A DNA stretch of 64,000 nt from Planctomycetota bacterium (GCA_020638675.1 JACKID010000001.1:2051261-2115260), one strand, 5' to 3'. Positions 6,558 to 51,860 are shown, counted from the first letter of the stretch. Notes: generated from the letters alone by a model not told the origin. Numbers and translations are program-made.

Positions 6558-6597
6558 GCGGACTCCGGCGAACGTTGCGCGAGTATATGAGCGCGCG

Positions 6598-7740
6598 TCA
6601 AGCTTCCAAGCGCACGTAGCGCTTGCCGGGCAGGGCCTTGGCGAGGCGCTTCATTTCGAGGGTGAGCAGGCCGCTGCTGATCTGCGCGGCGGGCAGGCTG
6701 GTTTTGCCCATCAGCTCATCGACGGTCAGGCCGTCGCTGGGCATCAGCACTTTCCACAACGCGGCCTCAGTGGGGGACATGCCTTGTGGCGTGGCGCTTG
6801 CCCGCTTCTCCGGCGCCTTTTCCTCGGGCAGCAACTTGAGCATCTCGAGGCCTTCGTAAACGTGCTCCGGCTCAGCGACGAGGTGCGCGCCTTCGCGGAT
6901 CAGGTCGTGGGGGCCCTGGCTGAGGTCGCTGTCGACTTTGCCCGGCAGTGCGAAGACCTCGCGGCCTTGCTCGGCGGCGAGGCGCGCGGTGATCAATGAG
7001 CCGGACTTGCGCGTGGCCTCGACCACGAGAACGCCGAGGCTAAGCCCGGAGATGATCCGGTTGCGCTGCGGGAAGTTGCGCGCGCGCCCGGGCGTGTGCA
7101 GGGGGAACTCGCTTACGACCGCGCCATTCTCGGCAATCTCCAGCGCGAAGCGGTCGTTCTCGGGCGGATAGATGTCCAACAGTCCGCTTCCCACCACGGC
7201 GATTGTTCGGCCGCCGGCATCCAGCGCGGCGCGATGCGCGGCTGTGTCGATCCCCCGAGCCAGGCCGCTCACGACGGTGACCCGGCGAATGGCAAAGTCG
7301 CGGGCGAAGCGCGCGGCCTGCGCGGTGCCGTAATAGCTGGCGCTGCGGCCACCGACGATGGCGAGCGACAGGTCGTCGTGTGAAGTGATTTCGCCACGGA
7401 CGTAGAGCAGCGGCGGCGGGTCATCGATGCGCTTGAGGATCTGCGGGTATGCCTTGTCCTCGAGCTCAAGCAGCTTGACTCCGTGCTTCTCGCACTCTTC
7501 CAGCTCGCGGAGGTGGTCGCCCTTGCGGATGACCTCCGCCAGCGCCTCCGCCCCTTGCTTGTTTACCTTCGGGACCTTGTTGAGTTCGCTCTTTGGGGCC
7601 GCGACGATGCCGCTCGCGCTGCCGAATCGCTTCAGCAGGTTCGCGACACCCAGCGGCGTGAACTTCTGCGCCACCGCCAGCGCGACTTTCGCCTCGATCT
7701 CACGCATGTGACCGGCCCAGCAGGGTTGCCGCGAGTGCAT
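6598..7740 (-). CDS. dprA: DNA processing protein DprA (Smf)
   Basis: 380 aa; DprA Rossmann-like core (LAIVGGRSASYYG, VVSGLARGIDTAAHRAAL, TIAVVGSGLDIYPPEN, FPQRNRIISGLS) plus a C-terminal winged-helix-like tail. Start uncertain (Met1 or Met12). Confidence 0.85.
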   Translation of the reverse strand: MHSRQPCWAGHMREIEAKVALAVAQKFTPLGVANLLKRFGSASGIVAAPKSELNKVPKVNKQGAEALAEVIRKGDHLRELEECEKHGVKLLELEDKAYPQILKRIDDPPPLLYVRGEITSHDDLSLAIVGGRSASYYGTAQAARFARDFAIRRVTVVSGLARGIDTAAHRAALDAGGRTIAVVGSGLLDIYPPENDRFALEIAENGAVVSEFPLHTPGRARNFPQRNRIISGLSLGVLVVEATRKSGSLITARLAAEQGREVFALPGKVDSDLSQGPHDLIREGAHLVAEPEHVYEGLEMLKLLPEEKAPEKRASATPQGMSPTEAALWKVLMPSDGLTVDELMGKTSLPAAQISSGLLTLEMKRLAKALPGKRYVRLEA

Positions 7741-8785
7741 CGTCCAGCCTGCAGGGAAGGGCCCCAGCTTCGCCCAACTCTGAAAGCACTACGAATCGCA
7801 GCACGTGGCCGGTGCGCTTCTTGTCGGCCTCCATGATCTCCAGCGCGCGCGCCGCTTCCAGGTTCTCCGGGACAACGGTCGAGAGCCCGAAGCGTCCGAA
7901 CAAGGCAACCACCCGAGTGGCGACTTCCGGGTCCAGCTTCGCACGCTCAACCGACAGGCGCAAAGCCGCGGCGGTGCCGATGGCAACAGCTTCGCCATGC
8001 AGATAGCGCTCGGGAAAGGCAGTCTCGATCACGTGGGCAAGCGTGTGCCCGAGATTGAGTGTCGCGCGGCGCCCGGTGACTTCCACCTCGTCCTCCGCGA
8101 CGACCTGCGCCTTGAAACGAACGCAAGCCTCGATGACCCGTTGCAGTGAATCCACCTCGCGGGCCGCCAGCTTGTCCGCCGACGCTTCGAGCAACGACAT
8201 CAACTCGTCGCCGCTGAGGGCGGCTGTCTTGATGATCTCTGCGATGGCGCTGACATACTCGCGCTCGGGCAGCGTCTTCAAGAAGTGAAGATCGCAAAAG
8301 ACGGCCGCGGGCTGGTGGAACGCGCCGATCAGGTTCTTGCCCGCCGCGTGGTTGATCGCGGTCTTGCCGCCTACGCTTGAATCGACCATCGCCAGCAGGC
8401 TCGTCGGCACCTGCACGTACCGAATTCCGCGCAGCAGCGTGGCCGCGAGATAGCCCGCGAGGTCGCCAACCATCCCGCCGCCCAGCGCAAACACGAGCGA
8501 GTGTCGATCCACCTGGCGCGCGGCGAACACTTCATCGTAAAGTCGCGCGAGTTGTTCAATGCCCTTGCTGTTCTCACCGGCAGGCACGGTGAAGACTTCG
8601 TTCGCCACCACTGCGTTCTGTACTACGTCGGCGTGAAGCGGCCCCACGTTGGTGTCCGTGACAATGAAGCTGCTCGTCGGCTTCTCGGCTTCTGCGAATT
8701 CACGCATTTCGCCAAGCAGCCGCTCGCCGATCACGACGTCGTAGCTGCGCTCGCCAAGGGAAACTGGTACGCGGGTAACTTCCAT
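7700..8785 (-). CDS. aroB: 3-dehydroquinate synthase
   Basis: 361 aa; AroB motifs (GGGMVGDLAGYLAATLLRG, VQVPTSLLAMVDSSVGGKT, NLGHTLAH). Confidence 0.9.
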   Translation of the reverse strand: MEVTRVPVSLGERSYDVVIGERLLGEMREFAEAEKPTSSFIVTDTNVGPLHADVVQNAVVANEVFTVPAGENSKGIEQLARLYDEVFAARQVDRHSLVFALGGGMVGDLAGYLAATLLRGIRYVQVPTSLLAMVDSSVGGKTAINHAAGKNLIGAFHQPAAVFCDLHFLKTLPEREYVSAIAEIIKTAALSGDELMSLLEASADKLAAREVDSLQRVIEACVRFKAQVVAEDEVEVTGRRATLNLGHTLAHVIETAFPERYLHGEAVAIGTAAALRLSVERAKLDPEVATRVVALFGRFGLSTVVPENLEAARALEIMEADKKRTGHVLRFVVLSELGEAGALPCRLDDALAATLLGRSHA

Positions 8786-38856: not shown

Positions 38857-39237
38857 GTGAAACAACTTGCACTGGTATGCCTCGGCGGAGCGCTCGGGGC
38901 ATCGATGCGCTGGGGCATCGCGATGGGGCTGCAGTGGAAATGGCCCAAGTTCGCGGAGACGTTCCCGTACGCAACTCTCATCGCAAATTTCATCGGCTGC
39001 TTCGCTATCGGTCTCGGCGTCGGCCTGCTCGGGCGCGAGGGAGTAAAGTGGGGGGCCGAGCTGCAACTGCTGCTGCTGGTGGGCGTCTGCGGCAGCCTGA
39101 CCACCTTCAGCACCTTCGCCAACCAGACACTCGACCTCGCCCCCGGCAAGGCGCTGCTGAACATCGGCATCAGCGTCGCCGGCGGGCTGTTCCTGGCCTG
39201 GCTCGGCCTGACACTTACCGGAGCCCGGCCTGCATAG
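38857..39237 (+). CDS. crcB: Fluoride ion channel CrcB (FluC)
   Basis: 126 aa from GTG 38857 (alternative ATG at 38791 overlaps the PHP gene start); CrcB motifs (GGALGASMRW, ANFIGCFAIG, GVCGSLTTFSTFA). Confidence 0.75.
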   Translation: MKQLALVCLGGALGASMRWGIAMGLQWKWPKFAETFPYATLIANFIGCFAIGLGVGLLGREGVKWGAELQLLLLVGVCGSLTTFSTFANQTLDLAPGKALLNIGISVAGGLFLAWLGLTLTGARPA

Positions 39238-39456
39238 CCCCGCGCCCGTTAAGCGGGGGTGACATTCGGGGCATCGGGACGCGGGCGTGCGGCCCCGCCA
39301 AACCACATCGCGCGACCAGTCCGACGAAGCTTCAGCGAAGGCGGAAGACGCGGCAAACAGCCAAAGCAACCATAGGTAAACACCGGTGAACAAGTGAATG
39401 GATGTTCACCGATGGTTGCGTTGGCCGTTGCACTACTTCGCTTCAAGCGGAGCCAA

Positions 39457-39531
39457 GGGGACTATCCCGGAAGTTCGGGACTGTCCCCGTTCTCAAAAGC
39501 TCTAAGTCAAACGACTACGGGGACCGTCCCG
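39457..39531. promoter_or_regulatory. Array of three GGGAC-N(1-2)-GTCCC palindromes (operator-like) in a convergent intergenic region
   Basis: ggggactatcccgg (39457-39470), cgggactgtccccg (39476-39489) and cggggaccgtcccg (39518-39531). Two are perfect 5+1+5 palindromes; centre-to-centre spacings are ~19 and ~42 bp. Confidence 0.4.
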
Positions 39532-39550
39532 TACCGGTGAAGTCCCCTTG

Positions 39551-40018
39551 CTACGCCGCGGCCGACTCGACCGGCGGAGAGGCCTCCATCCTCTCCTGTT
39601 TCCAGTCGTTGAGCGCGTCCATGGCTTCAGCCAGGAAGGCGTCGAGCTGTTCCGCCTGCTTCAGCGACGGCTCGTTGACCGCCTTCGCCGGCGCGCTGTC
39701 GAACGGCTCGGAGATCAGGCCGCGCTCGAGCAGCACTTCCTCAATGCACGTTTGCATCAGCTCGACCTTGCGTTGCTGCTGGCGCTCGAGGTCTTTCTGC
39801 GCGCGCAGCCCGACGCTGGGGGCGATGCGCCAGCGGTACGGCTTGTCGAACGGCAAAGTCGCGACGTGGTCCAGCTCGCGCTCGTGCTCGGCCAGCACCT
39901 TGCGGTCGCGGGCGATGGCGCGGTCAATGTCCTCGCCGCCCAGGTTCAGGTAAAGCTCATTGAGTTCCCGGCGGATCGCATCCTGCTCTTCGGCCGGAAG
40001 TTTCGAAGGATCAAACAT
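39551..40018 (-). CDS. Hypothetical protein (coiled-coil, charged)
   Basis: ORF 39551..40057 taken from internal Met14 (MFDPSKLPAEEQ...); no domain; weak support. Confidence 0.4.
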   Translation of the reverse strand: MFDPSKLPAEEQDAIRRELNELYLNLGGEDIDRAIARDRKVLAEHERELDHVATLPFDKPYRWRIAPSVGLRAQKDLERQQQRKVELMQTCIEEVLLERGLISEPFDSAPAKAVNEPSLKQAEQLDAFLAEAMDALNDWKQERMEASPPVESAAA

Positions 40019-40250
40019 GTCGTGTCTCCGTGTGTGGTTGCTGAAACAAGTATCCACACCGGTGCGACATTCTAGGCCGATTTAAGGCCAACCCGGATGC
40101 CAACCAACGCCCACAGAGCCTTATTTAGAGGGCTTCACGGGCGCCACAAAGGTTTTTTCGGGCTATTTTCGGGCAGCCAAAAAGGGGCTCGTCCGCGTAG
40201 CGCACATTCCGTCATCTCCCAATCAGCTGCTACTGACCCGCCGGTTGGGC

Positions 40251-41234
40251 CTAAGGCTTAGACTTGATAATCCAGTTAACCGATACGTTTGTCGGTCGAG
40301 TCTCAGCATCCCCACCCTTGCCGATGATGTGTGAATGTGCTCCTGCCGTTTCGGTAACCACTGACTCGTTGCTAGGGTAGCCATACTCTCGATCAATGGA
40401 AATTCGAGAGACAGAACCTAGGTTGATGTTTTCTCCGACCAACTTTCTGCTTGTGTAGTTCGACCAGAATATTGCGGTCTCCAAGACTAGTGAGTTACTG
40501 GAGCCCCTTGGCAAGTCTTCTGACCTCACGAACGGCTCGTCCCGCGGGGAAAACAGCGAGTGGTTGTGTGCTCCACCTTCGTTAGTTTCAAACTTCTTGA
40601 GGGGCATCGCCGTACTACCCCTTTGACGGCTACCTACTACATCTCCAACCTGAGCCCCCGAGCCGCTGGTCCTTTTCGCAGCCTCTAAATCAATACCCGC
40701 ACCGCTATCTACACCACGCAAAAACTGGCCGCGAAGATCGGGAATGTTGAACATTGCTGTGTTACCAGCACCATTGCCATGGGTGACGCCGATGGCGGCG
40801 TATAGCTCTGCGTACTCATCCATGCGGATCGCGCGCCCGTCACAAAGCAGCCAGCCAGTGGGTATGTTATTGGCTGGTCCAGAAAATGCCGTCACAGCGC
40901 CAACGGGGACGCCGGTGAGCTCCTGCGCCAGAGCCTTCCTGGCCAGCTCGTCCTCGCTAATGGCCCGCCCAATGGACTTAGCGGTCAGATCCTCTCGCGC
41001 CGACTTCATCTCCTTGTCATAGCGGTCAAGAACTTCTTGCTTTTGCATTGCGAGATCCAGCTCCAGCCCTGCCTTTATGCTGCTGTAGCCCGACCAGCCC
41101 GCGAGACCAAGCGCGGTTAGAAAAACTCCGAAGTAGATCATCGCACGATTTATCCATGCGTGGCACGCATCTCGGACCGCCAATAACTGCGAGGCGGATA
41201 ACTCCTCACCCTTCTTTTCGATCTTCTCAGTCAT
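40251..41234 (-). CDS. Membrane-anchored phage tail collar domain protein (MdpB/microcystin-dependent-protein-like)
   Basis: 327 aa; N-terminal TM helix (MIYFGVFLTALGLAGW) and coiled coil, then Phage_Collar signature (IPTGWLLCDGRAIRMDEYAELYAAIGVTHGNGAGNTAMFNIPDLRGQFLRG), GGAHNHSL / AGAHSHII repeats and a tail-fibre-like C-terminus (PTNVSVNWII). Local GC content is visibly lower than the surroundings. Confidence 0.75.
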   Translation of the reverse strand: MTEKIEKKGEELSASQLLAVRDACHAWINRAMIYFGVFLTALGLAGWSGYSSIKAGLELDLAMQKQEVLDRYDKEMKSAREDLTAKSIGRAISEDELARKALAQELTGVPVGAVTAFSGPANNIPTGWLLCDGRAIRMDEYAELYAAIGVTHGNGAGNTAMFNIPDLRGQFLRGVDSGAGIDLEAAKRTSGSGAQVGDVVGSRQRGSTAMPLKKFETNEGGAHNHSLFSPRDEPFVRSEDLPRGSSNSLVLETAIFWSNYTSRKLVGENINLGSVSRISIDREYGYPSNESVVTETAGAHSHIIGKGGDAETRPTNVSVNWIIKSKP

Positions 41235-41258
41235 CTACGTTCTAGCCTCCCTTTGCGC

Positions 41259-41765
41259 TCAGTCGTCTTCCCAAAGCCAGGCGAGCCGTGCGCGGTCAGT
41301 TGTGGTAACCCGATTCCAGCCCGTCTCATCTCTTAGTTCGTTCCAAAGTTCGATGAGTTCGTCTCTCGCTGAGATGCACTCTTGAAGAGCGATCTGATGA
41401 TCCGCGTGGCCAATAATGCCGGAAGTCAGGCGCAACCGATTGACCTCAATGTCGTTCTCGAGTTGAGCGAGCTTTTGGCAAAACGGGATCCAGCTCTTGG
41501 TCGGCCAGACGTCCTTCTGTACGTCCGGGCGATTGAGGTTCATGCCAATGCGGTGTCGGTATCTTGCATACTTGCTGACATCCTGTTGAAGTTCGTCCCA
41601 CGCGAGAACATCCTTTGCGAACTCGTTGGACTCTCGTTGATCAAGGAACGTGAAACCGGTGAGAACGGCGCTGGCCACCGAAATCACGATAGCGATGGCC
41701 GCCATCCATCGCTCTATCGACCAACCTGAGTTCTTCTTTTCACTCATGCGATGATTGTAGCCCAT
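41259..41765 (-). CDS. Hypothetical membrane-anchored protein (partner of the tail-collar protein)
   Basis: 168 aa; one TM helix (WMAAIAIVISVASAVLTGF); same strand, 24-nt gap to the tail-collar gene; low-GC region. Confidence 0.45.
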   Translation of the reverse strand: MGYNHRMSEKKNSGWSIERWMAAIAIVISVASAVLTGFTFLDQRESNEFAKDVLAWDELQQDVSKYARYRHRIGMNLNRPDVQKDVWPTKSWIPFCQKLAQLENDIEVNRLRLTSGIIGHADHQIALQECISARDELIELWNELRDETGWNRVTTTDRARLAWLWEDD

Positions 41766-42073
41766 ATAGGGTATGTGCGACGATTACAATCGGAAGCAAC
41801 GCTGGTAGCACGCCAGAATCGAACTCGCACCAAGGAAGCGCTCGTGATGGGATGATGCCCCTTGTTGCTCACGATGGGGCCCCCAAGCCAAGACCCGGGG
41901 CTCCAGTGGGCTATTATCTACCGCCCCTGCCTTGCCGTCGGTTGCGCCGGTCATATACTTCCCGCCCCTTCGGTGACGTGTTTCCGGGTGTGTGCCTGGG
42001 CGTTGCTGGAGACACATCAGAGCCCGGCCGTGCGTGGCTTGCCGCGTCCGAAGTCGGGATCAGGAACCCTTAC

Positions 42074-43777
42074 ATGTCATCATTGCGTGCCATCAATCCG
42101 CTCATCCGTCGCTACGGACCGAAGTCAGAAGTCGTCGAAGCGGAACTCGATTCAATCTGGAAAGAACCGTCGCTTGAGGACATGGTCCCGAGCGCACGCC
42201 ACTTCAGCGAAGACTCGCTGGTCAAGGGCCGTGTCATCACCGCCGAAAAGGACCGCGTCATCGTCGACATCGGCGCCAAGACCGTCGGCATCATCGACGC
42301 ACGCGAGTTCTCGGCCGACGAGGACAAGCCAAAGGTCGGCGACGAAATCACCGTCCTGATCGAAGAGCTTGAGAACGATGACGGCCTCATCGGGCTGTCG
42401 AAGCGCAAGGCCGACCGCAAGATCAACTGGGAAACCGTCGTCGCCAAGCACAAGGAAGGCGACACCGTCCGCGGCAAGGTCACCAAGAAGATCAAGGGCG
42501 GCCTGCTGATCGACATCGGCGTGCCCGCGTTCCTGCCGGCCAGCCAGGTCAGCATTCGCCGCACCCGCGACATCAACGAGTTCATCGGCGACGAGCTGGA
42601 ATGCGAGATCATCAAGATCGACCAGGCCCGCGAGAACATCGTCGTCAGCGCCCGCAAGCTGCAGGAGCGCAACCGCGAACGCCTCAAGGACGCGCTGCTC
42701 AGCGAAATCGAGGAAGGCCAGCTGCGCGAGGGCGTGGTCAAGAACATCGCCGACTTCGGCGCGTTCGTTGACCTCGGCGGCATCGACGGCTTGCTGCACA
42801 TCACCGACATGACCTGGGGCCGCATCCAGCACCCGAGCGAAGTGGTCAAGATCAACGAGACGGTCAAGGTGAAGGTGCTCAAGGTCGACCGCGACCGCGA
42901 GCGCATCGCGCTGGGCATGAAGCAGCTTCACGACAGCCCGTGGAAGGGCATCGCCGAGCGCTACCCGGTCGGCTCACGCCACCAGGGCAAGGTTGTCAAC
43001 ATCATGTCCTACGGCGCTTTCATTCGCCTCGAGGAGGGCATCGAAGGCCTGGTCCACGTCAGCGAAATGAGCTGGACCAAGCGCGTCAACGACCCGCGCG
43101 AAGTCGTGCAGCTTGGCGACGACGCGGAAGTCATCATCCTAGGCGTGAACGAGGAAAAGCAGGAAATCAGCCTCGGTATGAAGCAGCTTGAGGACAACCC
43201 GTGGGACAAGGTCAGCGCCAAGTACCAGCCGGGCGCCAAGGTCAAGGGCGTCGTGCGCAACCTGACCACCTACGGCGCGTTCATTGAGATCGAGCCGGGC
43301 ATCGACGGGCTGCTGCACGTCAGCGACATGAGCTGGACCCGCAAGGTCAGCCACCCGAACGAGATGGTCAAGAAGGGTGACGAAGTCGAGTGCGTGGTGC
43401 TGGCGGTCGACACCGACAAGCACCGCATCGCGCTGGGCATGAAGCAGCTCAAGACCGACCCGTGGGAAGACGAGATTCCGGAGCGTTTCTCGGTCGGCAC
43501 CGAAATGGAAGGCACGATCACCAAGATCACCAACTTCGGCGTGTTCGTAGAGCTGGACAACGAACTCGAAGGCCTGCTGCACATCAGCGAGCTCGCGGCC
43601 GAGGGCGGCGACAAGCCGGAAGAAGTCGTGAAGGTCGGCGAGAAGATCAAGGTCAAGGTGATCAAGCTCGACCCGAAGGAGCGCAAGATCGGGCTTACGG
43701 CGTCTGATTTCGAGGGCAGCGAAGGCGAAGTCGGCGGCACGACCCCGGCCGACGATTCCGACGCAAGCGCCGAATAG
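42074..43777 (+). CDS. rpsA: 30S ribosomal protein S1 (six S1 domains)
   Basis: 567 aa from ATG 42074 inside ORF 41852..43777; repeated S1-domain motifs (G.V..I...G.F..L..G..GL.H.S...W). Confidence 0.9.
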   Translation: MSSLRAINPLIRRYGPKSEVVEAELDSIWKEPSLEDMVPSARHFSEDSLVKGRVITAEKDRVIVDIGAKTVGIIDAREFSADEDKPKVGDEITVLIEELENDDGLIGLSKRKADRKINWETVVAKHKEGDTVRGKVTKKIKGGLLIDIGVPAFLPASQVSIRRTRDINEFIGDELECEIIKIDQARENIVVSARKLQERNRERLKDALLSEIEEGQLREGVVKNIADFGAFVDLGGIDGLLHITDMTWGRIQHPSEVVKINETVKVKVLKVDRDRERIALGMKQLHDSPWKGIAERYPVGSRHQGKVVNIMSYGAFIRLEEGIEGLVHVSEMSWTKRVNDPREVVQLGDDAEVIILGVNEEKQEISLGMKQLEDNPWDKVSAKYQPGAKVKGVVRNLTTYGAFIEIEPGIDGLLHVSDMSWTRKVSHPNEMVKKGDEVECVVLAVDTDKHRIALGMKQLKTDPWEDEIPERFSVGTEMEGTITKITNFGVFVELDNELEGLLHISELAAEGGDKPEEVVKVGEKIKVKVIKLDPKERKIGLTASDFEGSEGEVGGTTPADDSDASAE

Positions 43778-43800
43778 CATTGGCCATACGCCATATCGCG

Positions 43801-43834
43801 ACGCCCGGGGAAACCCGGGCGTCGTTTTATTTGC
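43801..43834 (+). terminator. Rho-independent terminator after rpsA
   Basis: Hairpin acgcccggggaaacccgggcgt followed by cgttttatttg. Confidence 0.7.
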
Positions 43835-43981: not shown

Positions 43982-45289
43982 ATGCAGCTACTTCGACCGG
44001 CCACACTTCTGCTGATTGCGTTGTTGTCCGCGCCTGCGTGGGCCGCGCTGGTTGAGTCCCAATTCCCCGGCAAGACGGAAGACGCAGTGGCGGCCGAGTT
44101 CGAGGCCGGCTTGCCCGCATGGCTTCAGGCGCGCCTCAAAGAACCGGCCAAGCCGCAGATGTACACGCTCGACGGCAAGACCGAGGTGTTCGTTGAATTG
44201 ACGGCAATCGACGGCTCCAACACCACCTGGATGACGCTGGTTCGTGTGGGCTGGATAGCCGAGACGAATCGCTACGGTTGGGGCCCCTACGGCAAGGAGT
44301 ACAAACTCGCGTTGGCGGACATTCCGGCACGCGAAGTCGCCGGCTGGTTCGTGCCTAAATTCCGCACGCCACAGGAGATTGTCGCGCTCGCGTGCTGGCT
44401 GGCGTCGAAGGGCGAGCAGCTTGAAGCGAACGCAAAGTTGGCGGGTCTGGCAGCCGTCAAGGAAGACCTGAAGAAGGACGCAGAGGCCTGGGTCGCCGCA
44501 AAGAACGGCTGGACCGTCCCGGCGGACGGGCTGATGATCGTCGAGACCCACGACCTTGAGCGCAACGAAGACGGCATGCTGTTCCAGACCAAAGCCGCGA
44601 ACGCGGAACGGCTCAAGGAACTCGACAAGGAAGCAAAGAAAGCCTTCAAGGAACTCGAGAAGCTGCAGGGTCTGGACGTAAAGAGCAAGCCGGGCTACCG
44701 CAAGAATTCGCCGGGAATGCGGCTCGTGATCCTGCAGGATTACGTCGATCGCTTCGAGCGCCGCTATGCCGGAACAAGTTTCATGGAAAAGAAGGGCACC
44801 AAGGAAGACCTCGACGATATCCGCGCGGCGATCAAAGCCGACCTCGAATACGTCGAGACCGAGAAATACAAGGCCGAGCGTTCCGGCATCGACGGGGACT
44901 GGCACGCCGCCGCCGAAGCCTACGACGTGATTCTGCGCGTCGACCCTTTGAATCCTGACCTAGTACTCGCGACGGCCGAGGCGTTCAGCAAAGCAGCCAA
45001 GATCACCAACGGCGCACGCAATGCCGAAGACCCGGCGTCGGCGAAACGCGCAGCGTTGTTGTATGAGCGATTGCTGGAGATCTACCCGAAGGCACTGGGT
45101 TTTCATAACCATGCGGGCGTAAACTGGCTGGCCGCCGCCAGCGACAGCAAGGTGGCTTCCGATGGCAAGAAACGGGCGAAGGAACACCATGAGGAGGTGA
45201 TCCGCCGCACGGACAACCGCAGCGACCTGTCAGAGAGTGAAAAGAGCAATCGTGAATACGCCGAAGGCCAACTGAAGCTGATCAAGTGA
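43982..45289 (+). CDS. Secreted hypothetical protein, paralog 1 of a tandem family (N-terminal conserved domain, K/E-rich coiled coil, TPR-like C-terminus)
   Basis: 435 aa; signal peptide LLIALLSAPAWA; shares architecture and motifs (IVALACWLASKGEQLEAN...) with the next two genes. Confidence 0.6.
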   Translation: MQLLRPATLLLIALLSAPAWAALVESQFPGKTEDAVAAEFEAGLPAWLQARLKEPAKPQMYTLDGKTEVFVELTAIDGSNTTWMTLVRVGWIAETNRYGWGPYGKEYKLALADIPAREVAGWFVPKFRTPQEIVALACWLASKGEQLEANAKLAGLAAVKEDLKKDAEAWVAAKNGWTVPADGLMIVETHDLERNEDGMLFQTKAANAERLKELDKEAKKAFKELEKLQGLDVKSKPGYRKNSPGMRLVILQDYVDRFERRYAGTSFMEKKGTKEDLDDIRAAIKADLEYVETEKYKAERSGIDGDWHAAAEAYDVILRVDPLNPDLVLATAEAFSKAAKITNGARNAEDPASAKRAALLYERLLEIYPKALGFHNHAGVNWLAAASDSKVASDGKKRAKEHHEEVIRRTDNRSDLSESEKSNREYAEGQLKLIK

Positions 45290-45360
45290 GGAAGCAGCTT
45301 CGGTTGCGGCAAACAACCTGTTTGTTACCTTTGACAATCAGGGACTGAGGAGGAGAGGAA

Positions 45361-46704
45361 ATGAGGAGCATCAACACAGCCCTGCTCGCGGCATTGGTTT
45401 GCGCCGGCTTTGCGGGCACTTTGCTGGCCGACCCCAGCGAAGACCTGTTCAGCAAAACCCACAAAGGCGCCAAGGAAGCCAAGGTCGCCTCTGACTGGTA
45501 TGACGCGCTGCCGGCGTGGGTGAACTCGCTGACGAGCAAAAACAACTTCCCGGTAACGCACCTGCCCTACGAGATCGTGAAGGGCAAGCTGAAGAACTCA
45601 AAGGTAGTGAACAAGTTCGAAATCCGCGACGCCAACGCCAAGCAGTTCAGCGCCTATCTCATGGTGCTCAACGGGACAGACGCCAACGGTCTGCCGGTCT
45701 ACGAAAAGACTAACGACTACGGCTGGCTTGCCTGGAAGGGCTGGCCCGCCAAGTACATCGTCGAGACCTATCCCGTCGAGGCCAACACTGACACGGCGAC
45801 CCTCGTGGCATTTGGCGCCTGGCTGTACGGCGAGAAGGAAAACGAGCTCGCCAACCGGGTGCTTACGGTCGCGCATGAGAAGGACAAGGAGCTCGCCCCG
45901 CTGATCGAGGCCTACATCTGCGACAAAGAGAAGTGGGAACTCCCGGCGACCGGCATGCAGCTCTGGAACGCGTGGGACGCGGAATACCAGAAAGAACGCG
46001 CGATTCTCGTAACTCCCGAAGAGCACGAGAAGCGCCTCAAGGAGCGCGAGAAGTCGGCTGAATCCGAATTCAAAGCCATCGTCGACGCGCGCGGCGACTA
46101 CAAGGGACGCCCGCCCCGCCGCAAGGTTCCGACCAAGCAACTGGTCCTGCTGCAGTGGGAGATCAAGCAGTACAAGATCGCCTACGCCTCGGCCGACTTC
46201 TTCAAGGACAGCAAGGTCACGGACAAGCTGCAGGAGATCACAGACTCAATCACCGACGACCTCGCGCTGATCAAGGACAACATGGAAGTCGCCCGCAACA
46301 TGGGCGCAGACGGTGATGCCAACGAGCTCAAGAAGAAGGCCGAGTTCCTGGAAGAAGTCCTGAAGATCGACCCGGAAGACCTGAATCTGCGCAGCCAGGT
46401 CGGCAACGCGTGGTACATCTGGGGCAACCCGGCGCCGCACGGCAACAGCTGCGACCGTGCAGACGGCATGAAGAAGGCCATCCCGCACTACGAAATCATC
46501 ATCAAGGCTTACCCGAGTAACACGTCGTTCCTGCTGGCTCTCGGGCGCTGCTACCAGGCGCTGGAAGACAGCAAGCACGCACGCGTCTACTACGAGAAGG
46601 TGATCGAGATCGACGGCACCAAGGGCAACGCGGTGACCGCCAAGGCCCTGATCCGAAACATGGACATGGCCGACCAGACACGCGCCAAGAACGGCGGAAA
46701 GTAG
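45361..46704 (+). CDS. Secreted hypothetical protein, paralog 2 of the tandem family
   Basis: 447 aa; signal peptide; ETYPVEANTDTATLVAFGAWLYGEKENELANRVLTV aligns with paralog 3 (TTYPVATNPDTQDVIAFAVWLYLNADDPMIANRVLTV). Confidence 0.6.
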   Translation: MRSINTALLAALVCAGFAGTLLADPSEDLFSKTHKGAKEAKVASDWYDALPAWVNSLTSKNNFPVTHLPYEIVKGKLKNSKVVNKFEIRDANAKQFSAYLMVLNGTDANGLPVYEKTNDYGWLAWKGWPAKYIVETYPVEANTDTATLVAFGAWLYGEKENELANRVLTVAHEKDKELAPLIEAYICDKEKWELPATGMQLWNAWDAEYQKERAILVTPEEHEKRLKEREKSAESEFKAIVDARGDYKGRPPRRKVPTKQLVLLQWEIKQYKIAYASADFFKDSKVTDKLQEITDSITDDLALIKDNMEVARNMGADGDANELKKKAEFLEEVLKIDPEDLNLRSQVGNAWYIWGNPAPHGNSCDRADGMKKAIPHYEIIIKAYPSNTSFLLALGRCYQALEDSKHARVYYEKVIEIDGTKGNAVTAKALIRNMDMADQTRAKNGGK

Positions 46705-46712
46705 ACTGCAAC

Positions 46713-46745
46713 GGGGCCCGGGAAGCCGGGCCCCGACTGTTTTCT
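46713..46745 (+). terminator. Rho-independent terminator after paralog 2
   Basis: Hairpin ggggcccgggaagccgggcccc followed by gactgttttctg. Confidence 0.6.
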
Positions 46746-46823
46746 GAAATAGTGCGTAGCGCAAAGCAACCAAGCGTCACTTATCTGCAGCGCCCCCTCG
46801 GCCGACCCCTTCGCGGCTGAACC

Positions 46824-48041
46824 ATGACTCGCTCTCTGATTGTGCTTCTCGTGCTGGCACTCGCGGCACCGCTGTTCGCGAGCGGGCTGGTTGAGAAGGT
46901 CTTCGCGCGCAAGATCGCCGACGACTGGTACAAGCACTTCCAGGACTACGTCGAAGGGCAATGCAAAGCCGGGAAGTACCCGGAGACCTGGTTCGAGGGC
47001 GCGGACGGCACGCTGCAACTGTTCCGGATCCAATCCGTCAGCGACGGCAAACTGATCACCTTTGAACTGGTCGAGGCCGCCGACGCCAAGGGCAACATCA
47101 GCCGCAGCCCCGCCAAGGAATCGACCACATTCGAGTGGTCACAGTGGCAACCGAGATTCATCGCCACCACCTATCCGGTGGCGACGAACCCGGACACGCA
47201 GGACGTGATCGCGTTTGCCGTATGGCTCTATCTCAACGCCGATGACCCGATGATTGCCAATCGCGTGTTGACCGTCGTCTACGAAGCCAATCCGGACATG
47301 CGCGACGACATCACGGACTTCGTCCGCGAGCACCACGCCTGGTCACCCAAGGACAAGCTGGCGGTGGGGGAGATGTGGGACGAAGTCTTCGCCAAGTGGC
47401 GCCGCGTGCTGCTGCCCAAGAAAGAAGCAGAGCAACTGGAGAAGGACCGCAGCAAGGAGTGCAAGGCCGTTTCCACACTGCTGGACGAATACCGCAATGC
47501 GGAAGCCCGCACACTCACGCTCGCGCAGATTGCCTATGGGCTGCGCGAATGGCGCAAGAAGCACGGCGCTTCCGACACTGGCTCAAAGTATCTCAAAGAC
47601 GTAGAAGCCGTGCTGGACTCCATCAGCACCGACCTCAAGAATGTGGAAACACTCGTCGCCCTGGCTGACGGCGGCGCAAAAGCCGCCAAGCCCCAATGGG
47701 ACGCCGTCGCCAAGGACTATGAGAAAGCGCTTGCGCTCGACAATCGCGACGCGCGCCTGCTTTCCCTCACGGCCGACGCATGGCGCAAGCACGCGAACCC
47801 CGAAGTCGTCGGCGGCCAGTTCAAGTGCACACAGGAACACTCGGCCCGCCGCGCGCTTGAGCTGTACGAACGTTGGCACGAAAGCGAGCCGACCAACTAC
47901 AAGGTCGTGCTGAACATGGCCGTCTGCAACCACGTAATCGGACAGCGCAACGACGCGCGCAAGCTGTATCAAAGAGTGATCGACGAGAGCGAAGACGCGG
48001 CGCTGATCAAGCAGGCCCGCGACTACGACAAACTGCCCTGA
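46824..48041 (+). CDS. Secreted hypothetical protein, paralog 3 of the tandem family
   Basis: 405 aa; signal peptide LIVLLVLALAAPLFA; conserved ANRVLTV block and TPR-like C-terminus shared with paralogs 1 and 2. Confidence 0.6.
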   Translation: MTRSLIVLLVLALAAPLFASGLVEKVFARKIADDWYKHFQDYVEGQCKAGKYPETWFEGADGTLQLFRIQSVSDGKLITFELVEAADAKGNISRSPAKESTTFEWSQWQPRFIATTYPVATNPDTQDVIAFAVWLYLNADDPMIANRVLTVVYEANPDMRDDITDFVREHHAWSPKDKLAVGEMWDEVFAKWRRVLLPKKEAEQLEKDRSKECKAVSTLLDEYRNAEARTLTLAQIAYGLREWRKKHGASDTGSKYLKDVEAVLDSISTDLKNVETLVALADGGAKAAKPQWDAVAKDYEKALALDNRDARLLSLTADAWRKHANPEVVGGQFKCTQEHSARRALELYERWHESEPTNYKVVLNMAVCNHVIGQRNDARKLYQRVIDESEDAALIKQARDYDKLP

Positions 48042-48077: not shown

Positions 48078-48875
48078 ATGAGCGGCGCAAAGATTGCATC
48101 CATCTCACTGCCTTGCCTTGCGCTGGTGTTCCTGCTGGCAGGTTTCATCGCGAACCCGCCGGCCGAGCCGGAGCCCGAGCCGCTGCCGCCGCAGGAATTT
48201 GATCTCCTGTTGGCGCGCGAGTACGTGGAGGCCCAATGCTGGCAGTGCCACAGTGTCAGCAGCCTGCACGACGAACTTGTCGCCGAGTTCGGCGAGCAGG
48301 CCGCGGGACTGCGTCCATACGGGCCGGACCTGGCAGGCGTTGGCAATCGCTACGCAGCAGACTGGCACGCGGCCCACTTCTGGCAGCCCGGCACGGTCGT
48401 CGCGGGCTCACAGATGCCCGCGCAGCGGCAGTTGTTCGACCAGTCCGGCGCCCTGAACGAACTGGGACAAAACGTCGTGCGCTTTCTGCTGACGCTCAAG
48501 ACCCCGTCGCCGATCAACAAGCCCTGGCCCACGGAGCGCCTGTCCGCTCCAGACGGCGACGCCGCCCGGGGGCGTACGGTGTTCGTTCGCGAATGCGCCG
48601 GCTGCCATGGCGACCAGGGGCACGGCGACGGCCCCGCGGCGCGCTTCTTCAAGACCGTACGCGCACCGGCGAAGCTGGCCGACGGCGAGTTGATCACCCT
48701 GCGCGACGGCGAAGCCCCGCTCGACACCATCTACACGAACATCACCAACGGGCTGCCGGGCACCGGCATGCCCAGCTTTGGCACTCGCCTGAATGAAGCC
48801 GATAGAGCGGATGTCGCGGCCTACGTGCTCAAGATCAGCCAGGGGGCTGGCTCAGTTTCGCCAGGCAAAGACTGA
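48078..48875 (+). CDS. Di-heme c-type cytochrome (CcoP/FixP-like), membrane-anchored
   Basis: 265 aa; N-terminal TM helix; two CxxCH motifs (CWQCH, CAGCH). Confidence 0.7.
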   Translation: MSGAKIASISLPCLALVFLLAGFIANPPAEPEPEPLPPQEFDLLLAREYVEAQCWQCHSVSSLHDELVAEFGEQAAGLRPYGPDLAGVGNRYAADWHAAHFWQPGTVVAGSQMPAQRQLFDQSGALNELGQNVVRFLLTLKTPSPINKPWPTERLSAPDGDAARGRTVFVRECAGCHGDQGHGDGPAARFFKTVRAPAKLADGELITLRDGEAPLDTIYTNITNGLPGTGMPSFGTRLNEADRADVAAYVLKISQGAGSVSPGKD

Positions 48876-48956: not shown

Positions 48957-49424
48957 ATGGCACTGTTTTCATCAACCTACCCGATTCGTTTCAGCGATGT
49001 GGACCACGCGGGAATCCTGTACTACCCGCGCTTTCTGCACTACTTCCACTGCTGCTTTGAGGACTTCTTCGAGCGAGGGCTGGGCATTCGTTACAGCCAC
49101 CTGCTCGACGTCGAGCGCATCGGCTTTCCCACCGTGCACATGGAGGTCGATTACCTGAAGCCGCTGCGCTTCGGCGACCACGTCGAGATCAGCCTCGGCA
49201 TCCAGAAGATCGGCAAGAAGAGCGTAACCTGGACCTACACCGGCGACACCGCGCGCGACAACAAGAAGGTCCGCGCCGTCGAGGCCAGCCTCGTCACCGT
49301 CTGCCTTGACATGGACTCTTTCACAGGCGTCGAGCTGCCCCAGAAGTACCACGACCTGTTCAAGAAGTGGCTCGTCCCTGACAGCCACCGAACCGGCCTC
49401 TACAAGGCCGTGAAGCCGGAATGA
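48957..49424 (+). CDS. Acyl-CoA thioesterase, hotdog fold (4-hydroxybenzoyl-CoA thioesterase/YbgC-like)
   Basis: 155 aa from the internal Met (MALFSSTYPIRFSDVDHAGILYYPRFLHYF) of ORF 48882..49424; 4HBT-family pattern with the catalytic Asp in SDVD. Confidence 0.75.
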   Translation: MALFSSTYPIRFSDVDHAGILYYPRFLHYFHCCFEDFFERGLGIRYSHLLDVERIGFPTVHMEVDYLKPLRFGDHVEISLGIQKIGKKSVTWTYTGDTARDNKKVRAVEASLVTVCLDMDSFTGVELPQKYHDLFKKWLVPDSHRTGLYKAVKPE

Positions 49425-49521
49425 CGGTTCCGTCTCTGCCGGGCAGTTCAGTCTCCGCCCATTGAGCCGCCTCTCGCGACTCCCGCACTCCAGCCGTCGC
49501 AGACGGCGCCTCACTTGATAG

Positions 49522-50155
49522 CCCCCGGTGGAGCGAAGCGAAACCGGGGGAATTCGTCGCCATCGGAATCCCGAGCCGGCTTGCCGGCGGCTCTCGTGTG
49601 GGCGCGGGCCCTCCCGCCCGATATCATCCGGTCATGGCCCACACGTACACGCGGCAGTTGCTTCATATCGTGTTCAGCACGAAGGACCGCCGTCCGCACC
49701 TTACGCCTGACAGACGCCCGCGCATGCTCGGCTATCTGCGTACGGTTTCCGAGGACCTTGGCGTCACGTTACTCCGATCAAACGGCGTTGAAGATCATGT
49801 ACACCTGCTGATCGACCTGCCGGCGTCGCTCAGCACGGCCGAGTTCATGCAAAAGCTGAAGGCCAATTCATCGCGCTGGTTTCGCAAGCAATTCACCGCT
49901 GTCGATTTTCACTGGCAGCGCGGCTACGGCGCGTTCAGTGTCAGGGAATCGAAGGCCGCCGACGTGTGTGGCTACATCGACCGGCAGGAACAGCATCACA
50001 AGAAGAGTTCGTTTGAAAACGAACTTCGCAAGCTTGTAGCAAGCCACGGGCTGGAGTTTGACGAACGCACCTTCCTTGAGTGATGAGTCGCCGGCAAGCC
50101 GGCTCGGGTCCGTTCTTACCTGCATACCCCCGGTTCCGCTGCGCTTCACCTGGGG
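49522..50155 (+). mobile_element. REP-associated tyrosine transposase (RAYT) unit with flanking inverted repeats
   Basis: Left side: hairpin cccccggtggagcgaagcgaaaccggggg (49522-49550) and cccgagccggcttgccggcggctc (49570-49593). Right side: gagtcgccggcaagccggctcggg (50085-50108), an inverted copy of the left repeat, and cccccggttccgctgcgcttcacctgggg (50127-50155), a near-inverted copy of the left hairpin arm. These enclose the RAYT gene. Confidence 0.7.
49634..50083 (+). CDS. IS200/IS605-family Y1 transposase, REP-associated (RAYT/TnpA-REP)
   Basis: 149 aa from Met13 (MAHTYTRQLLHIVFSTKDRRP); HuH motif DHVHLLI; Y1 catalytic Tyr near the C-terminus (GYGAFSV...Y). Confidence 0.8.
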   Translation: MAHTYTRQLLHIVFSTKDRRPHLTPDRRPRMLGYLRTVSEDLGVTLLRSNGVEDHVHLLIDLPASLSTAEFMQKLKANSSRWFRKQFTAVDFHWQRGYGAFSVRESKAADVCGYIDRQEQHHKKSSFENELRKLVASHGLEFDERTFLE

Positions 50156-50282
50156 CTATCGAGAGAACCGCCGTCTTCGACGGCTGACGGGCCGACCTGC
50201 CGGAGAGCAGCCTGTGCCGAGGCACGGAAACGTTCGACTTGCGTCCGGGGCTCCAGTTCCTTGAATCGATGCGCACGAGGAC

Positions 50283-51860
50283 GTGAACATGAGCGACATT
50301 CCCGAGTTTCCCGATCGCTTCAACATGGCGAGCTACTTCGTTGACTCGAACATTGAGGCCGGGCGAGGCAGCAAGGTTGCGATTCACTACGAGGGCGCTC
50401 GTCTCACGTACCAGCAGGTGTTCGAGAACGTAAACCGCGCGGGCAACGGGCTGAAGGCGCTTGGACTGCAGCCGGAACAGCGCGTCTTGACCGTACTGCA
50501 CGACCGCCCGGAGTTCGTCGACTTCTGGTTCGGCGCGATCAAGGTGGGCGGTGTCGCCACGCAGATCAACCCGCTGCTGCCGACCGAAGACTTCGCGTAC
50601 TACCTGAACTACACCAAGGCGCCGATCGCGGCCGTTGATGAAGAGGCGTTGCCGAGTTTCCTGCCGGCGCTGAAGGAAGCGCGCTACCTGAAGCACGTAA
50701 TCGTCGTCGGCAAGGCGAGCGCTGACGCGCCCGCGGGCATCAAGCTTCACGCATGGAATGAATGGCTTGCCGGCCAGAGCGACAAGCTTGATCCGGCAGA
50801 CACCAGCAAGGACGACCCGAGCGTCTGGCTGTTCACCAGCGGCACGACCGGCCACAGCAAGGGCGCCGTCCACTTCCACTTTCACTTCCCGTACAACACC
50901 GAAGTCTACGCCAAGCGTTTTATAGGCATGCGCGAGAGCGACATCACCGTCAGCGGCCCGCGCCTGTTCTTCGGCTACGCCACGGGCACCAACGTGATGT
51001 TTCCGTTCGCGGTGGGGGCGACGACGGTGCTGTTCCCTGACCGGCCTACGCCCGCGCGCCTGTTTGAGCTTGTGCAGAAACACAAGTGCACGGTGCTGAC
51101 CAACGTGCCGACGCTGATCAACAAAATGCTCGCTGAAGAGGCCCGCCCGGACCTGTCTTCACTGCGCTTCATGTGGAGCGCCGGCGAAGCACTGCCCAAA
51201 GACCTGCACGAAAAGTGGGATGCCGCATTCGGCGTGCCGATCATTGACGGCATCGGCAGCGCAGAGAGCTTTCACATCTATATCAGCAACCGGCCTGACG
51301 ACGTGCGCCCCGGAAGCCTTGGCAAGCTGGTACCGGGCTACACCGCAAAGCTGACCGACGACGACGGCAACGCGGTGCAGCAGGGCGACGTCGGCACGCT
51401 CTGGGTCGGCGGCGACAGCGCTGCGCTCTACTACCACAACGCGTATGCGAAATCGAAAGAACACCTGCGCGGAGGCTGGATCGTAAGCGGCGACAAGTTC
51501 CGCCAGGACGCCGACGGCTACTGGTTCTATGAAGGCCGCGGCGACGACCTGATCAAGAGCGGCGGCATCTACGTCAGCCCGCTGGAAGTCGAGAACTGCC
51601 TGATGCAGCACGAGGCCGTGAAGGAATGCTGCGTAATCGGCAAGAAGGACGAGGCGGGGCTCGAAAAGCCCTTCGCCATCGTCGTGCTGAACGAAGGCGT
51701 TGAAGCCAGCGACGCCACCAGCGACCGGCTGATCGCGCACGCCAAGCAGAAACTCGTACGCTACAAGGCCCCGCACGGCGTGGCCTTCAGCGACAAACCA
51801 CTGCCACGCAACGACCGCGACAAGATCGACCGCAAAGCCCTGCGCAAGGAATACGCCTAG
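50283..51860 (+). CDS. Aryl-CoA ligase, AMP-binding (benzoate-CoA ligase family)
   Basis: 525 aa; AMP-binding motif FTSGTTGHSKG; overall benzoate/4-hydroxybenzoate-CoA ligase-like organisation. Confidence 0.7.
   Translation: MNMSDIPEFPDRFNMASYFVDSNIEAGRGSKVAIHYEGARLTYQQVFENVNRAGNGLKALGLQPEQRVLTVLHDRPEFVDFWFGAIKVGGVATQINPLLPTEDFAYYLNYTKAPIAAVDEEALPSFLPALKEARYLKHVIVVGKASADAPAGIKLHAWNEWLAGQSDKLDPADTSKDDPSVWLFTSGTTGHSKGAVHFHFHFPYNTEVYAKRFIGMRESDITVSGPRLFFGYATGTNVMFPFAVGATTVLFPDRPTPARLFELVQKHKCTVLTNVPTLINKMLAEEARPDLSSLRFMWSAGEALPKDLHEKWDAAFGVPIIDGIGSAESFHIYISNRPDDVRPGSLGKLVPGYTAKLTDDDGNAVQQGDVGTLWVGGDSAALYYHNAYAKSKEHLRGGWIVSGDKFRQDADGYWFYEGRGDDLIKSGGIYVSPLEVENCLMQHEAVKECCVIGKKDEAGLEKPFAIVVLNEGVEASDATSDRLIAHAKQKLVRYKAPHGVAFSDKPLPRNDRDKIDRKALRKEYA

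Follow-up and report, generated by a model that had tools for sequence, protein, structure and literature searches.

Three paralogous, putatively exported TPR proteins with an unclassified N-terminal domain in uncultured Planctomycetota

A 64,000-nt stretch of the genome of a Planctomycetota bacterium (GCA_020638675.1, JACKID010000001.1:2051261-2115260; hereafter the window, with positions counted from its first letter) carries three consecutive genes that we call P1, P2 and P3. Their products are paralogs with export signals, a confidently predicted fold in the N-terminal part and a C-terminal tetratricopeptide repeat (TPR) module; the genes keep a fixed order across related genomes, are all under purifying selection and differ widely in evolutionary rate. 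Given these features, the chances seem to us evenly balanced that P1-P3 work jointly as soluble TPR adaptors in the periplasm or envelope.

Results

The three plus-strand genes lie where the initial annotation of this DNA had placed them and have the lengths it gave (Table 1). Comparison by BLASTP revealed similarity between P2 and P3 (E=1e-32; 25% identity over 379 aligned residues), P1 and P2 (E=3e-22; 24% identity over 419 aligned residues) and P1 and P3 (E=2e-8), and hhalign paired the N-terminal domains alone with 99.5-100% probability in all three combinations. These values put the resemblance far above chance; the shared architecture that had been described is confirmed as well. They support the reading of P1, P2 and P3 as paralogs that probably arose by successive duplication. 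P2 and P3 had been called close, but at just 25% identity they are not, and it is P2 that occupies the central position between P1 and P3.

We surveyed 59 family copies for export signals. All of them, in every genome examined, begin with a signal-peptide-like N-terminus, as proposed initially for the three genes of the window. It combines a basic n-region with a hydrophobic core of 12 residues (Kyte-Doolittle value above 2) and an AxA-like cleavage site. No other transmembrane segment was found in the family copies (maximum of the 19-residue Kyte-Doolittle mean, <=1.0), and the mature proteins are acidic (isoelectric point 5.7-6.1) with ~30% charged residues. Two cysteines of P2, Cys364 and Cys397, are invariant in that subfamily (100%); the corresponding pair in P3 (C335/C368) is present in 81-88% of sequences, and P1 lacks it. 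Judging from this pattern the two residues probably form a disulfide, and the conservation of the pair is consistent with an oxidising compartment and thus with export.

The N-terminal ~200 residues form a coherent predicted unit, as had been suggested. An AlphaFold2 model of full-length P2, built on a 34-sequence alignment, has a predicted local distance difference test (pLDDT) score of 89.8 and a predicted template-modelling (pTM) score of 0.75; residues 24-218 modelled separately (195 residues) reach 95.7 and 0.89. The predicted order of elements is two helices, a four-strand beta meander (residues 65-124 of P2), four helices (residues 130-189) and a beta hairpin (residues 200-217). In the full-length model, residues 1-22 are a disordered signal peptide and residues 261-445 are solely helical. 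A block of conserved sequence singled out in the initial annotation is found in P2 and P3 and, more weakly, in P1; as a candidate cryptic TPR it obtained an hhalign probability of 0.1-0.2%, and its sequence gives no support for that identity.

Profile and structure comparisons, which the initial annotation had recommended for this domain, yielded the confident model but neither a family nor a fold relative. No match was found among Pfam, NCBIfam or PADLOC families, and the domain profile searched against PDB sequences returned noise. Foldseek comparison of the domain model revealed no relative in the PDB (best E=0.11, template-modelling (TM) score <=0.24) or in BFVD, where the best hits (E=4e-3, TM ~0.2) were uncharacterised phage proteins. 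A profile of the N-terminal domain alone recovered two family fragments from a 5.8-billion-protein set, a weak test since known full-length members were not listed. The domain is thus confidently modelled, without a relative found in these searches, and unclassified.

A Lys/Glu-rich segment follows, and with it part of an early description that could be kept: the segment is present, but in the model it is a single 26-residue helix, and the coiled coil it was said to form is not demonstrable. Beyond a conserved basic loop, the helical C-terminus, initially called TPR-like, proves to be a real TPR module on three counts: firstly, TPR_8 matches P2 above its Pfam cutoff (27.2 versus 25.7); secondly, the last ~135 residues of the P2 model superpose on the designed protein CTPR3 (PDB 1na0) with a TMt of 0.79 and a root-mean-square deviation of 2.7 Å over 135 columns; thirdly, hhalign detects an internal repeat between residues 313-356 and 357-447 (probability 86%, E=4.7e-6). 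Designed consensus TPRs were the sole matches when the single P2 sequence was searched against PDB sequences, and TPR proteins dominate the Foldseek matches of the full P2 model in the PDB. This part of P2 also aligns with P1 and P3, each of which stays below every Pfam TPR cutoff (for P3, TPR_19 at 23.9 versus 25).

P1-P3 belong to the TPR superfamily (Pfam CL0020) through these C-terminal residues only. The module accounts for ~30% of each protein, and the other ~300 residues have no relatives outside the family. Positions conserved across all three subfamilies (L29, W154, N165, L168, L261, A311, A327, D337, A348, A373, P385, A407 and A427, in P2 numbering) are mostly Ala, Leu, Pro or Trp residues of the packing or TPR-signature kind and include no shared catalytic-looking set, consistent with a scaffold rather than an enzyme.

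The cysteine pair that P2 and P3 hold inside the TPR module recalls the Helicobacter cysteine-rich proteins (Hcp), secreted paralogous helical proteins built of Sel1-like repeats, with disulfides that bridge the repeat helices. P1-P3 would likewise be secreted paralogs. Unlike Hcp, they have no Pfam Sel1 match at E<=1, one cysteine pair instead of one per repeat (and none in P1), a large N-terminal non-repeat domain, and stable orthology in place of an expanding family.

Conserved Trp and Tyr residues are numerous in the N-terminal domain of P2, at and near the beta meander (W122, W125, W128, W154, W192 and W205). In soluble, exported, acidic proteins such a cluster could serve binding to a glycan or another envelope polymer: each protein would act independently, with the N-terminal domain on peptidoglycan or polysaccharide and the TPRs as a tether for a machine of synthesis or export (compare the TPR parts of BcsC, AlgK, PgaA or CpoB), and no heteromer would be needed. 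We consider this unlikely, as P1 does not conserve the aromatic cluster and Foldseek found no carbohydrate-binding module or other glycan-binding fold.

The comparison with CpoB/YbgF (TIGR02795), the nearest functional analogue, points the same two ways. That protein is Sec-exported, soluble and periplasmic, as P1-P3 would be, and joins a non-TPR N-terminal domain to a short C-terminal module of about three to four repeats; YbgF is among the best named partial matches in NCBIfam (E=4e-4) and Foldseek, the helices of the N-terminal domain faintly resemble the YbgF TPRs, and a YbgC-like thioesterase lies nearby even in the divergent locus L034 (related loci are given L numbers). The match is weak, however, at 20.9 versus an equivalog cutoff of 90.1, and confined to the TPR part of P2. 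The thioesterase reaches neither YbgC cutoff, and its neighbour is a gene of the benzoate-CoA ligase family, so that a Tol-Pal link drawn through it was rejected. Neither the window locus nor about 25 related loci contain tolQ, tolR, tolA, tolB or pal, the setting of CpoB, and no locus has polysaccharide-synthesis genes. CpoB, about 260 residues long, is encoded by one gene and has a trimerising coiled coil at its N-terminus, where P1-P3, three paralogs of 405-447 residues, have a ~195-residue alpha/beta domain and a helical linker.

The family is restricted to one lineage. A word-indexed search returned 52 proteins, every one of them a P2 ortholog (40-93% identity), complete or in fragments, from metagenome-assembled genomes of uncultured Planctomycetota, for which the best existing annotation is 'tetratricopeptide repeat protein'. 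A HMMER profile search of 1.84 billion representatives matched ~45 clusters (at 50% identity) over the full length, again all from uncultured Planctomycetota; thousands of weaker matches were generic multi-repeat TPR proteins, aligned to profile positions ~320-440 only. The full-length representatives comprise ~16 P1-like, ~5 P2-like and ~14 P3-like proteins, each with a signal peptide. In the GTDB species set the family occurs in 19 of 185,579 genomes, titled 'Planctomycetota bacterium' or 'uncultured bacterium' without exception. A literature search found nothing on it, in agreement with the unknown function stated initially.

A neighbor-joining tree of 59 sequences separated P1 (200/200 bootstraps), P2 (166/200) and P3 (197/200) into groups that each span species, from which we conclude that the triplication predates the divergence of these species. 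Duplication, as initially proposed, is borne out; what the tree depicts is a set of ancient orthologous groups across 19 species, in contrast to an array that has diversified recently. In 19/19 species genomes the genes follow a fixed order on one strand, P1, P2 and then the third copy. The arrangement P1-P2-P3 is found in 16/19 species genomes and P1-P2 only in 1/19, while a divergent clade (L025-27; 3/19) has P1a-P1b-P2: P3 is absent there, a second P1 copy is present, and the number of copies remains three. A survey of copy number, another check suggested at the outset, thus gives two or three, and tblastn detected none further in the window. More distant loci depart from this order: L034 has a P1-like/P2-like pair after rplM-rpsI, in a different neighbourhood, and L033 a P2-like gene on its own in an unrelated one. 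P2 is thus the core of the family; P1 accompanies it almost always, whereas P3 can be dispensed with.

Upstream of the solo P2-like gene, L033 encodes a secreted 444-residue protein (6585-7919) composed of four ~105-residue repeats. Considered as a hidden P1, it turned out not to be related to the family (hmmsearch E>0.03); no Pfam match is on record for it.

Selection was estimated from the ratio of nonsynonymous to synonymous substitution rates (dN/dS, or omega) by the Nei-Gojobori method. Between the window and its closest relative, where dS is near saturation, the ratio is 0.065 for P1, 0.054 for P2 and 0.153 for P3, with 0-0.126 for neighbouring genes; the closest genome pairs (dS 0.5-0.7) give omega values of 0.055-0.073, 0.023-0.036 and 0.087-0.123, respectively. 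Mean pairwise identity within subfamilies follows the same order (P2 57%, P1 43%, P3 36%), and P3 evolves about 3-6 times as fast as P2. Purifying selection acts on all three genes, with much weaker constraint on P3.

These values give no support to gene-wide diversifying selection as the initial annotation had envisaged it, since gene-wide omega lies between 0.02 and 0.15, far under 1. That account took the genes for secreted or surface proteins that diversify as an array under positive selection, such as adhesins, scavenging or substrate-binding proteins, or immunity-like proteins. For P1 and P2 it is largely refuted: orthology is one-to-one, gene order is fixed, and copy number is limited to the two or three noted above. 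Nor is there a trace of the roles named. No substrate-binding protein fold was recognised (on the K/E-rich helix of P1, the model EfaA reached 16.4 bits, with a cutoff of 485, and SloC 14.6 bits, with a cutoff of 525), the genes beside the module include no transporter, no toxin gene is adjacent, and PADLOC gave no match at E<=1 in a context that is stable and syntenic rather than cassette-like. What speaks for diversification comes from P3, which is 25-31% identical between clades where P2 is 50-62% identical and whose omega is 3-4 times that of P2. In L013, P3 (7468-8750) is only 32-36% identical to its counterparts in L011 and L024, unlike P1 (84-90%) and P2 (76-84%), which points to a replacement or a burst of change that affected P3 alone. 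The speed of P3 and the event in L013 leave the idea some room for this one gene; as an explanation of the family we hold it to be very improbable.

Each gene had been credited with its own terminator hairpin, but a strong one follows P2 only; after P1 there is a weak 5-bp stem in a 71-nt spacer, at the level of background, and after P3 none. The hairpin after P2 is kept in nearly all relatives (-21 to -32 kcal/mol, within 45 nt and often with a T-rich tail), L021, which lacks P3, included; P3 has no counterpart of it in these genomes. P1-P2 spacers measure 0-144 nt across genomes and have background-level structure only. The short spacers, with no strong hairpin, and the strong hairpin after P2 together suggest that P1 and P2 form a bicistronic unit. 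P3 ends 36 nt before the start codon of the next gene with no hairpin between them, and no obvious Shine-Dalgarno sequence was seen for P3; it may be a separate transcription unit that possibly runs into that gene, which encodes a cytochrome c. Scanning the locus against Rfam gave no genuine match; the sole one listed coincides with the hairpin after rpsA and scores far under threshold.

Table 1. Features of the P1-P3 locus, in window coordinates
Feature	Position	Strand	Remarks
Hairpin after rpsA	43798..43825	+	Terminator-like; 12 pairs, then T-run; separates rpsA from the P1-P2 unit
P1	43982..45289	+	ORF (open reading frame), 435 aa; intermediate-rate paralog; full-length homology to P2
P1 signal peptide (aa 1-21)	43982..44044	+	MQLLRPATLLLIALLSAPAWA, predicted cleavage before A; rule-based
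P1 version of conserved block (aa 122-155)	44345..44446	+	WFVPKFRTPQEIVALACWLASKGEQLEANAKLAG; alignment; degraded form
Hairpin in P1-P2 spacer	45302..45318	+	Weak; not conserved as a strong structure
P2 Shine-Dalgarno sequence	about 45345-45351	+	GGAGGAG; strong; after the weak hairpin
P2	45361..46704	+	ORF, 447 aa; slow-evolving core paralog; in every family-carrying lineage
P2 signal peptide (aa 1-23)	45361..45429	+	Rule-based; model pLDDT <50 here
P2 N-terminal alpha/beta domain (aa 24-218)	45430..46014	+	AlphaFold2 model
P2 conserved block (aa 136-170)	45766..45870	+	TYPVEANTDTATLVAFGAWLYGEKENELANRVLTV; alignment; W154, N165 and L168 invariant family-wide
K/E-rich helix (P2 aa 219-244)	46015..46092	+	Model
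Basic Pro-rich loop (P2 aa 245-260)	46093..46140	+	GDYKGRPPRRKVPTKQ; conserved; R253 invariant
TPR module (P2 aa 313-447)	46297..46701	+	~Four units; Pfam, model, hhalign
Cys364	46450-46452	+	Conserved; P2 TPR module
Cys397	46549-46551	+	Conserved; P2 TPR module
Hairpin directly after P2	46712..46735	+	Strong, G+C; 10 G-C pairs; conserved in relatives
P3	46824..48041	+	ORF, 405 aa; fast-evolving paralog
P3 signal peptide (aa 1-19)		+	Rule-based
P3 conserved block (aa 116-151)	47169-47276	+	Alignment
Di-haem cytochrome c	48078..48875	+	Membrane-anchored; CWQCH, CAGCH; partial CcoO/FixO domain and class I cytochrome c domain

The genes around the module, in an order conserved across the clade, are rpsA, the di-haem FixO-like cytochrome c gene, a 4HBT thioesterase gene, a gene of the benzoate-CoA ligase family and a creatininase-family gene. 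The cytochrome c gene is a frequent but inconstant downstream neighbour of P3: it follows the module in about 15/19 species genomes and is not beside it in L018, L019, L020, L021, L033 and L034.

This neighbour raises a further possibility, namely that P1-P3 serve in the periplasm specifically to assemble or chaperone the membrane-anchored multi-haem cytochrome c, after the manner of CcmI/CycH and NrfG; P3 would then be the member specific to the client. As in those systems, a periplasmic TPR module would mostly be encoded beside the gene of a c-type cytochrome. In most genomes the distance from P3 to the FixO-like cytochrome c gene downstream is 9-48 nt with no hairpin between, both genes evolve fast, and in the P3-less clade L025-27 secreted thioredoxin-fold proteins stand between P2 and a tri-haem cytochrome c. 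The Pfam model TPR_CcmH_CycH (PF23914) gives a weak match (13.4 bits, E=0.07), far below its cutoff of 42. P1-P3 lack a CcmI-type membrane anchor, no ccm or ccs genes were seen in the locus, and the thioredoxin-like proteins have no CxxC motif. Strict co-occurrence of P3 and the cytochrome is contradicted by the genomes that lack the latter and by L003, which has the cytochrome without P3. We consider the cytochrome assembly role unlikely.

Several observations concern the neighbours themselves. The cytochrome c is 81% identical between genomes where P2 is 93% identical, and no ccoN lies nearby; the tri-haem version of the divergent clade is 392-424 residues long. The thioredoxin-like proteins of that clade (L025 7339-9604; also in L026, L027 and L007) are two secreted paralogs of 321 and 259 residues, each with a thioredoxin-like N-terminal part and a K/E-rich helical tail. 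The 4HBT thioesterases of L034 (5262-5738) and the window (48957-49421) are 81% identical where the P2-like proteins share just 39%; the presence of this gene next to the module even in L034 is either residual synteny or an unexplained link.

Two insertions lie close to the module. Between crcB (38941-39165) and rpsA is a ~2.9-kb block of lower G+C content (39200-42070; 0.55 versus about 0.62) with three minus-strand ORFs at 39551-40057, 40251-41234 and 41259-41765, the second of which encodes a protein with a Phage Tail Collar domain (PF07484) and an N-terminal hydrophobic segment. In relatives this place is taken by a MOSC gene or a small ORF, or is empty, so the block is a lineage-specific insertion. 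The other, of ~870 bp (49421-50293), separates the thioesterase gene from the benzoate-CoA ligase family gene, 3 nt apart in the closest relative. It contains an IS200-like Y1 transposase (49598-50083; PF01797, E=6e-26) and has GC-rich palindromes that resemble each other on its two sides (CCCCCGG...CCGGGGG), as does a transposase of the kind associated with repetitive extragenic palindromes (REP-associated tyrosine transposase). The mechanically called rpsA ORF (41852-43777) is ~74 codons too long at its 5' end, as orthologs align from 42074.

Discussion

The proposal that P1-P3 serve as a set of adaptors can be put as follows. Sec would export all three as soluble proteins of the periplasm or cell envelope. 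Each would consist of the family-specific N-terminal alpha/beta domain, the helical linker and about four C-terminal TPR units, and by analogy with known TPR proteins this last module would bind an extended peptide of a partner protein. P1 and P2 would be made from one transcript, with P2 as the constrained core; P3 would be transcribed apart, possibly along with the downstream cytochrome c, as a fast-evolving peripheral member. As old, non-redundant proteins the three may act together, most likely as a hetero-oligomer or in parallel service of one envelope process. Direct support exists for export, for a TPR module of the peptide-binding kind and for joint inheritance of non-redundant copies. 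A hetero-oligomer is suggested by the fixed gene order, the signals of co-transcription and the retention of three copies where a second P1 has replaced P3.

A number of points weigh against this proposal. Two lineages with just P1-P2 and the solitary P2-like gene of L033 mean that a three-part complex cannot be obligatory. Synteny that is conserved inside a narrow clade is weak functional evidence, and the flanking genes are functionally heterogeneous and include no constant partner. The signal peptides were called by rule and not by a trained predictor, and P1 has no Pfam TPR match of its own. Finally, we infer rather than observe localisation, peptide binding, interaction in a hetero-oligomer and the cellular process served.

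A more specific version would combine two claims: that the N-terminal domain is a previously undescribed fold, and that P1-P3 form a defined hetero-oligomer in the periplasm, built on P2, in which P3 is an exchangeable subunit that confers specificity. This complex would occur in one uncultured Planctomycetota lineage alone and have a lineage-specific role there in envelope or respiratory-chain assembly. We think it unlikely that this holds in full.

The family is uncharacterised and lineage-restricted and has an unclassified N-terminal domain; the mechanism proposed for it is not surprising in itself. Its hosts are uncultured, no long-standing open question is touched, and the practical significance is modest. 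If the proposal is true, P1-P3 would constitute a compact, clade-defining exported TPR adaptor module in a phylum with an unusual and poorly understood envelope biology. They would also give structural classification a candidate new domain with a confident model, and offer a clean natural example of ancient paralogs that keep a fixed order while evolving at very different rates, with a slow core and a fast periphery.

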